This document shows, piece by piece, positions 53,938 through 54,819 of a stretch of DNA of 64,000 bases. Within the stretch, counting starts at the first letter, position 1, and every line of letters begins with the position of its first letter. The position numbers and the translations under genes are program-made. The DNA is taken from contig NC_134837.1 of the NCBI RefSeq assembly GCF_004210375.1, forward strand, positions 252,489,964-252,553,963, in the 5' to 3' direction. Source of the DNA: Tachypleus tridentatus. Its lineage: Eukaryota. The notes under the pieces are model-generated. The model was not told the DNA's origin and ran no database searches. It worked only from the letters and a program-made list of their open reading frames with translations.

Positions 53938-54819
53938 ATGGAATCCAGGTTGACCAAAGAAGAAGCTTTGTATTTTGTATCTAAAGTTCTTGAGATACCA
54001 GAGGCTAAGAGAAAATTGGCAACAGATCGCAGTGCTTTCCTAGATCATCTTATAGAGACGATCCACCAAGTAATTCCTTATCATAATATATCTTTCCTTT
54101 CACTGGAACCGGAACATCGTTACATACCAACATGGGCTGGAATTAAAGAAGCCATGATGGCTAAACAAGGAGGATCGTGTTACATTCTCAATGTCTTTGT
54201 GAAATATTTGCTTCAAGCTTTGGGGTTTGACGTGTATCATACTGCATCTGCGTTTGGATTTCCAAACAATCATATTTCTACAATTGTTCGAAACTTGTCG
54301 GCACGTGGCACTAAACATCTGGTGGATTTCAGCGCCTTTCCAACGTTCAAGGCAATCCCATTAGATTTCGAAGAAGAATCACCAGTTTATAGCATGTCAT
54401 ATCTCAAATTTAAGTTTGTTCGTCAAGGAAATTTAATAATACGAGTTCATAAAACTTTAGACGTTCTTGTACCCGAGAATCGGCGTGATAAAGACGGTTG
54501 GTCTGATTATTTTATTTTTGATCTTGAACCTCGAGATCTTTCTTACTTTGAAGAACACATGACTAAAGCATACCTCGTTGCAGAAGTGAACCCTCCAGTC
54601 TTAGAAAATTTATATTTTATTAGCTTTCCTGGACTCAAACTCTGCGGTATCAAAAATAAGTTTGAGCTCTCAGAAGGAGCCGATCAGAAAATTCAATACC
54701 AGCAGCTTTCATCAAAGTTCGAAGTGGTTCAGTCAATTATTAACAAATGTCCACAAATTCCCGAAGATCAAATCATCTTAGCGATTGACAGAATAAATTT
54801 GTTCACTGTTTACAAGTAA
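53938..54819 (+). CDS. Arylamine N-acetyltransferase (NAT family, acetyl-CoA:arylamine N-acetyltransferase fold), single exon, 293 aa
   Basis: Catalytic-triad Cys motif KQGGSCYILN (compare RGGWCLQVN in human NAT2); Cys-His-Asp spacing with His in FPNNHISTIV and Asp in KHLVDFSAF (compare YIVDAGSG). Other family blocks: HQVIPYHNISFL (compare AVPFENL) and IFDLEPRDLSYFE (compare LFTLEPRTIEDFE). Length matches NATs (~290 aa). The supplied ORF start at 53743 reads through the upstream SINE; the true start is taken as Met-66 (MESRLTKEEALYF). Confidence 0.85.
   Translation: MESRLTKEEALYFVSKVLEIPEAKRKLATDRSAFLDHLIETIHQVIPYHNISFLSLEPEHRYIPTWAGIKEAMMAKQGGSCYILNVFVKYLLQALGFDVYHTASAFGFPNNHISTIVRNLSARGTKHLVDFSAFPTFKAIPLDFEEESPVYSMSYLKFKFVRQGNLIIRVHKTLDVLVPENRRDKDGWSDYFIFDLEPRDLSYFEEHMTKAYLVAEVNPPVLENLYFISFPGLKLCGIKNKFELSEGADQKIQYQQLSSKFEVVQSIINKCPQIPEDQIILAIDRINLFTVYK

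Follow-up and report, generated by a model that had tools for sequence, protein, structure and literature searches.

Ping-pong acetyl transfer is the established chemistry of the arylamine N-acetyltransferase (NAT) family. The closest described systems comprise bacterial enzymes with solved structures (Bacillus cereus NAT3, 4dmo; Mycobacterium smegmatis, 1gx3; Salmonella, 1e2t) as well as vertebrate NAT1 and NAT2 (human 2pqt/2ija, 2pfr). In case of the mammalian genes, the open reading frame (ORF) is free of introns and exons lie upstream of it (PMC4158862, PMC3601968), and in case of the fungal NAT homologs, the acyl-CoA selectivity differs from member to member (PMC4542470). With respect to invertebrates, PMC4447851 credits Glenn et al. 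2010 with partial NAT-like ESTs from Lottia, a mollusc, and Litopenaeus, a shrimp, and itself describes a measured NAT-like activity in the secretion of a gastropod; three invertebrate NATs have been placed at the base of the vertebrate tree (PMC3601968). Our literature searches yielded no paper on a horseshoe-crab NAT and no statements on an absence of NATs from protostomes.

The stretch analysed here, in the following termed the window, comprises 64 kb of the nuclear genome of the horseshoe crab Tachypleus tridentatus and carries such a gene. On the plus strand, an intact frame of 293 codons runs from an ATG at 53938 to the stop codon at 54817-54819, exactly where a preliminary description of this DNA had placed a 293-aa ORF; a mechanically called ORF with a GTG start at 53743 is a longer version of the same frame, and its extra part extends back into a SINE. 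The 293-aa product is 100% identical to XP_076337127.1, isoform X2 of LOC143239667, which is annotated in Tachypleus tridentatus as an “uncharacterized protein”. Its assignment to the NAT family, which had been proposed from motifs, is well founded: the Pfam family PF00797 (Acetyltransf_2) matches with 41.1 bits (E = 2.3e-10; gathering cut-off 22.8 bits), a match that is limited to residues 35-208 and thus to a part of the 293-aa protein. None of the NCBIfam models, which were made for naming bacterial and archaeal proteins, matches it. When the single sequence is compared with solved structures, only NAT-family proteins and one esterase (E = 0.25) are found, the best match being Bacillus cereus NAT3 (4dmo) with E = 7e-5 and 25.6 bits. 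In this alignment, GGSCY corresponds to GGLCY and NNHISTI to SGHIATV, and HLVD contributes the third triad position. The catalytic Cys that had been recognised in GGSCY, and the His and Asp that had been noted at the expected spacing, are Cys81, His112 and Asp130, all of which align with the NAT triad. The FDLEPRDLSYFE block, likewise listed before as an NAT hallmark, pairs with FTLEPRTIEDFE of human NAT2.

The fold agrees with this assignment. An AlphaFold2 model of the 293-aa protein, calculated with an alignment of 41 sequences, has a mean pLDDT of 92.4 and a pTM of 0.92, and the 40 best matches of a Foldseek search with this model against the PDB are all NAT-family structures that align near full length (259-346 alignment columns, TM 0.57-0.75, 12-18% identity), among them mycobacterial, human NAT1 and NAT2, Mesorhizobium, Bacillus, Salmonella, Fusarium FDB2 and GdmF structures. 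Beyond the NAT-family matches, there is a sharp drop to unrelated cysteine proteases with E > 0.03. According to the model, the protein thus possesses the NAT fold over its full length. Among the aligned sequences, Cys81 is kept in all 41 and His112 in 40, with the sole exception looking like a local misalignment, while position 130 is occupied by Asp in 31 and by Glu in 10 cases; for the latter, the Cys-His-Glu triad of Bacillus cereus NAT3, which is mentioned in the title of 4dmo, is a precedent. Judged by these alignments, the protein carries the predicted Cys-His-Asp (or Glu) triad. With the PF00797 match, the structural matches of the model and the conserved triad, the 293-aa product is a genuine NAT-family protein.

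The gene is larger than its uninterrupted coding sequence suggests. RefSeq models three isoforms of LOC143239667 (X1, X2 and X3). Isoform X1 has 343 residues, of which the first 37 are encoded exactly by 35734-35844, and exact peptide matches, tblastn and the sequence itself locate an upstream exon that covers at least 35734-35846 (plus strand) and is coding in X1 (MFFRV...DHWATDN plus the first two nucleotides of an Arg codon). It is followed by a GT-AG intron of 18,054 bp (35847-53900, plus strand), whose donor (...GAT AAC CG|GTTAGT, at 35847) and acceptor (TTTTAAG|G, exon from 53901) are both seen in the sequence, and the split codon CG+G restores the Arg of X1. The coding part of the main exon (53901-54819, plus strand) includes the whole coding sequence of X2 (53938-54819) and the last 306 residues of X1, and the exon runs on into the 3' UTR, where a pattern scan detects candidate polyadenylation signals between 54863 and 55098 (AATAAA at 54863, 54965 and 55093; ATTAAA at 54889). 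The long isoform of a Tachypleus paralog has the same ...DHWATDN|RS... junction, and the two-exon layout is therefore older than the split of these paralogs. The earlier statement that the gene is intronless and single-exon like vertebrate NAT1 and NAT2 consequently holds for the X2 coding sequence, which lies in one exon, but not for the gene, which has an upstream exon and the 18,054-bp intron. The N-terminal extension that is specific for X1 (MFFRVIQHRLLQITRSYHTLSSLPIAGTTR...) has a high content of Arg, Ser, Thr and Leu, and acidic residues are missing from its first 30 positions; from its composition, it could be a targeting presequence, or the exon could simply be a 5' UTR exon with an upstream ATG. 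A tandem array of a 44-bp unit (5.1 copies, 98% identity) occupies 35177-35400, about 330 bp 5' of the X1 start codon, and may lie in the NAT promoter region.

An uninterrupted coding sequence in transposon-rich surroundings is also what one would see if a processed copy of a multi-exon parent gene had inserted among transposons, and a retrogene-like copy was indeed one of the explanations offered at first. However, a retrogene would be expected to lack introns and to have a poly-A remnant at its 3' side, whereas LOC143239667 has an upstream exon, a canonical 18-kb intron and an exon junction that is identical in a paralog, and no A or T run of at least 10 nucleotides was found in 54820-56000 downstream of the gene. 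Moreover, the clade members whose DNA was read have no break in their coding sequences either, namely the Limulus locus L008 (10001-10921) and three further relatives, which reside on metazoan-looking contigs with Death, ankyrin, RING, ANF-receptor/7tm_3, EF-hand and Kelch domains, and the combination of an ORF without introns and upstream exons is found in mammalian NATs as well (PMC4158862, PMC3601968). We therefore regard retroposition as very improbable. The transposon-rich setting would then be nothing else than the content of the 18-kb intron, which holds SINE copies, a Tc1-like remnant and the first copy of a duplicated block, and of the flanks.

Where does the gene come from? In a single-protein search, the identities are 88% and 56% to Tachypleus paralogs, 75% and 53% to Limulus proteins, 31-41% to metagenome proteins and 35-37% to amphioxus proteins. 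A profile of eleven clade members retrieved 104 proteins, and every named one is from an animal: Branchiostoma, the gastropods Littorina, Batillaria, Nucella, Babylonia, Candidula, Aplysia and Arion, the echinoderms Lytechinus, Strongylocentrotus and Apostichopus, and the octocorals Paramuricea, Dendronephthya and Xenia. The named homologs, all of them metazoan, reach 190-460 bits, versus 43-57 bits for four bacterial-type proteins. An exhaustive HMMER search gave 224 cluster representatives at E <= 1e-30, 508 at E <= 1e-10 and 1385 at E <= 1e-3, and the named ones among the twenty best new representatives are from Holothuria, Glandiceps, Saccoglossus, Acanthaster, Anneissia, Asterias and Patella. 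No other arthropod is among the named homologs of the single-protein search, the profile search and the best HMMER representatives. A neighbour-joining tree (288 columns, 200 bootstraps; human NAT1, human NAT2 and B. cereus NAT3 as references, with sequences taken from the PDB alignments) contains an invertebrate metazoan clade with 98% support, with the bacterial-type sequences and the human NATs outside. Within this clade, the horseshoe-crab sequences, which represent several Tachypleus and two Limulus loci, are monophyletic (98%), and they form two sub-lineages that each unite Limulus and Tachypleus (100% each); the order among the phyla is weakly supported (22-52%). As both sub-lineages contain Limulus and Tachypleus, at least one duplication must have preceded the split of these genera, and more copies arose later in Tachypleus. 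A lineage-specific family, which was another of the initial explanations, is well in line with the horseshoe-crab clade.

The third of these explanations was a horizontal acquisition, from a bacterium or a fungus. One could argue for it with the fact that the single sequence finds its best solved-structure match in a Bacillus NAT rather than in a human enzyme, and with the lack of a second arthropod among the named homologs. If such a transfer had occurred, the closest relatives should lie outside the host lineage, or the composition should look foreign. Instead, the gene nests with its Limulus orthologs in the horseshoe-crab clade and with other animals in the 98% metazoan clade, which leaves the bacterial-type sequences outside, its close named relatives are all animals and belong to five other phyla, and the gene contains a spliceosomal intron. 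The preliminary description had itself named nesting within the host's own family as the sign of ordinary inheritance. The composition of the gene is host-like, with nothing foreign-looking: GC3 is 0.32 for the NAT and 0.40 for a G protein-coupled receptor (GPCR) gene at 8672-11077 (window GC 0.35), and the RSCU of the NAT correlates with that of the GPCR gene (0.57) and with that of one intron segment (0.58) to a similar extent, so that this measure does not discriminate. The GPCR gene itself is a single uninterrupted plus-strand ORF of ~796-801 aa for a rhodopsin-family receptor (PF00001, 199 bits) with a very long insert between two 7tm_1 matches, presumably the third intracellular loop. 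When the two Limulus loci were compared with the window, matches were confined to the coding exon and common repeats, and within 10 kb the flanks showed no unique sequence that is conserved. At the level of the xiphosurans, horizontal transfer is refuted, and we consider it extremely improbable for this gene. Vertical inheritance is the preferred reading: the gene would have been passed on since at least the ancestor of Limulus and Tachypleus and would belong to an NAT subfamily of marine invertebrates that is divergent and occurs across the metazoans.

Within this subfamily, the nearest relatives are Limulus LOC106476130 and LOC111088400, which are named arylamine N-acetyltransferase in UniRef, and Tachypleus LOC143238952, LOC143239727, LOC143236544, LOC143236513, LOC143256338 and a “putative arylamine N-acetyltransferase 2” (53-99% protein identity). 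They resemble the window gene in length (~293-306 aa) and in the triad, and the complete Limulus locus (L008) is likewise uninterrupted, while the other Limulus gene is cut by a contig end. LOC106476130 shares 85% DNA identity with the window gene across the coding exon. Unlike these paralogs, the window copy resides in a young tandem duplication of 12.6 kb, and its product differs from isoform X3 by 3 residues and from the nearest separate paralogs by 12%. The NAT-like proteins of amphioxus, hemichordates, echinoderms, gastropods and octocorals, which are automatic annotations, align with the window protein over the full length with 28-44% identity, share its GGxC, NH and VD/VE motifs, and fall into one clade with it (98%). 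Vertebrate NAT1 and NAT2 have the same fold (TM 0.67-0.72), the same Cys-His-Asp triad, a similar length (~290 aa), a common LEPR..FE block and the same gene layout of an ORF without introns and upstream exon(s) (PMC4158862), but human NAT2 is only 19% identical to the window protein over 155 aa. Bacterial NATs share the fold and the triad as well, and no other solved structures match better in sequence (25.6 bits for the single-sequence query, 47.8 bits for the profile), but their identity to the window protein is 13-18%, the bacterial-type sequences lie outside the metazoan clade, and the window gene differs from them by its spliceosomal intron and its animal relatives. With the clade profile, Bacillus NAT3 reaches 47.8 bits and human NAT1 and NAT2 reach 32-33 bits, whereas human NAT2 and a Mesorhizobium NAT score 97 bits against each other, which is why we consider the invertebrate clade a divergent NAT branch that is not orthologous to NAT1/NAT2. 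Such an orthology is also rejected by the position of the human NATs outside the 98% clade and by the low identity to human NAT2.

The surroundings of the coding exon are rich in repeats, much as they had been described. A Tc1/mariner-like transposase remnant (~52412-53430, plus strand) lies inside the intron and ends ~500 bp 5' of the ATG. The HTH_Tnp_Tc3_2 domain (PF01498) is recognised with 42 bits (cut-off 31.5) in its first ORF (52412-52855), while the catalytic part is degenerate and Pfam gives no match in the downstream ORF (52899-53213), and the element is therefore a remnant. Another Tc1-like transposase fragment at 31159-31911 on the minus strand is better preserved (250-aa ORF, PF01498 with 76 bits). 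By blastn, one SINE copy is located in the intron at 53536-53780, where it stops 120 bp short of the acceptor and 158 bp short of the ATG, and a second one at 55789-56008, 970 bp 3' of the stop codon, in agreement with the copies noted at the 5' flank and 1 kb downstream. They belong to a family with ~27 copies of ~210-280 bp in the 64-kb window, for which ARAGORN finds no tRNA-like gene, and the Limulus NAT loci carry the same SINE family. The window also contains two satellite arrays, one of a 32-bp unit repeated 27.5 times with 95% matches (1-880) and one of a degenerate 35-bp unit repeated ~31 times with higher-order periods of 105 and 140 bp (16867-17957).

The coding exon is part of a unit of 12,624 bp (47363-59986). 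The start of this unit, 47363-51376, is repeated in direct orientation at 59987-64000 with 98.46% identity (54 mismatches in 4010 aligned positions; period 12,624 bp), and the island had accordingly been assigned to a 12.6-kb duplicated unit. The repeat itself is thus real, but the second unit is represented in the window by its first 4 kb only, up to the window end, and its NAT exon would be predicted at ~66562, beyond that end. Isoform X3 with its 3 amino acid differences fits such a second tandem NAT copy. At the boundary of the two units, a full SINE spans 59745-60019, whereas unit 1 opens (47363-47395) with only the last ~33 bp of that SINE, which is the pattern that would be left if a full SINE had undergone unequal crossing-over with a truncated one. 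This junction suggests that the tandem duplication arose by unequal crossing-over between SINE sequences. The growth of the horseshoe-crab family would then have proceeded by older duplications, followed by the recent 12.6-kb tandem duplication with its junction in a SINE. Within the duplicated unit, 3' of the NAT, there is an inverted repeat at 58582-58757 with 70-nt arms that are 94% complementary and 36 nt apart. In Limulus, a fragment of KI904036.1 (1078-1288), ~330 bp 3' of the Limulus NAT gene, is 78% identical to the 3' coding region of the NAT (window 54557-54767), and this similarity suggests a partial local duplication in Limulus, too.

A recently amplified array raises the question of whether the window copy is a decaying or redundant duplicate, i.e. 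an incipient pseudogene. The tandem duplication is young (98.5% identity), and transposon debris is found all around. In human NAT, the variants R64Q and R64W lower protein stability, and in the alignment with NAT2 the equivalent of the human Arg64 is a Gln (Gln77, window 54166-54168). However, Gln77 is common to all of the horseshoe-crab sub-lineage to which the window gene belongs, including Limulus LOC106476130, and the position varies across the invertebrate clade. In comparison with LOC106476130 (85% DNA identity, 221 codons), dN is 0.158 and dS 0.298, and the resulting omega of 0.53 is significantly below 1 (Fisher p = 0.0065); in comparison with LOC111088400, omega is ~0.14 at saturated dS. 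For the expanded sub-lineage, 0.53 is fairly high, which would mean that constraint is relaxed or that function is diversifying, and a relaxed constraint is what one would expect in a decaying copy. Nevertheless, X2 and X3 differ by only 3 amino acids, whereas neutral evolution at the divergence of the duplicated non-coding block (1.35%) should have produced ~9.3 differences (P = 0.017), if the X3 exon is assumed to be the next tandem copy. As judged from these codon comparisons, the NAT coding sequence is under purifying selection. With the 293-codon frame and the triad intact and three RefSeq isoforms modelled, a pseudogene in the making is improbable, albeit not to the degree that retroposition is.

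We therefore consider it very probable that LOC143239667 is a functional gene for a putative NAT-family enzyme of T. tridentatus, that it has at least two exons, one of which holds the complete 293-aa frame, that it was inherited vertically, and that its family grew by older duplications and the recent 12.6-kb tandem duplication. By analogy to the family chemistry, Cys81, activated by His112 and Asp130, would take the acetyl group from acetyl-CoA, and the acetyl group would then move on to an aromatic amine or a hydrazine-type acceptor in a ping-pong reaction. Chemistry and substrate would thereby be assigned by homology to characterised NATs with 12-19% identity.

What alternatives exist for this proposed activity? 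The protein could keep the NAT fold and triad but do a different job, such as using another acyl-CoA like the Fusarium FDB2 malonyltransferase, forming an amide on an endogenous metabolite like the GdmF-type amide synthases, or acetylating endogenous biogenic amines instead of xenobiotic arylamines. As family members exist that use malonyl-CoA or make amides, a different activity is conceivable also for the 293-aa protein, and non-canonical members, namely FDB2 (7qi3), GdmF and a Streptomyces acyltransferase, are among its sequence and fold matches. That the acyl-CoA selectivity is documented to vary among fungal NAT homologs (PMC4542470), that the clade is about equally far from bacterial (47.8 bits) and human NATs (33 bits), and that dN/dS is 0.53 within the expanded sub-lineage would be compatible with such a change. 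Yet there is no specific pointer to another donor or acceptor, and the gastropods, which have members of the clade, include a species whose secretion has a measured arylamine-type NAT-like activity (PMC4447851). A different job thus appears unlikely, although it is much less remote than a decaying copy, and acetyl transfer to an arylamine-type acceptor is the activity that we would propose.

A more far-reaching reading would be that the horseshoe crabs are the only arthropods that keep an ancient marine-invertebrate NAT subfamily, which is roughly equidistant from NAT1/NAT2 and bacterial NATs, that the Tachypleus genes were amplified by SINE-mediated unequal crossing-over, and that one gene model apparently splices a shared 5' exon to alternative tandem exons that each encode a whole enzyme (X2 and X3). 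We regard this combination as tentative and rather doubtful, even if slightly less so than a changed enzymatic job.

As LOC143239667 is already in RefSeq, albeit as uncharacterised, and as the Limulus relatives are already named arylamine N-acetyltransferase in UniRef, the identification has hardly more than bookkeeping value: the gene is an ordinary representative of a known enzyme family, inherited vertically and duplicated recently. It is mildly notable only for the subfamily's apparent absence from other arthropods in these searches and for the possibility that the tandem coding exons share a 5' exon. For the family, a divergent invertebrate-type NAT subfamily is documented in cnidarians, molluscs, echinoderms, hemichordates, amphioxus and horseshoe crabs, with no other arthropod among the named matches, and the layout of one coding exon and an upstream exon is common to horseshoe crab and mammals. 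Xenobiotic-metabolising families frequently duplicate, and the horseshoe-crab NAT family is actively duplicating. For enzymology, the window gene offers a clean candidate for a protostome NAT.
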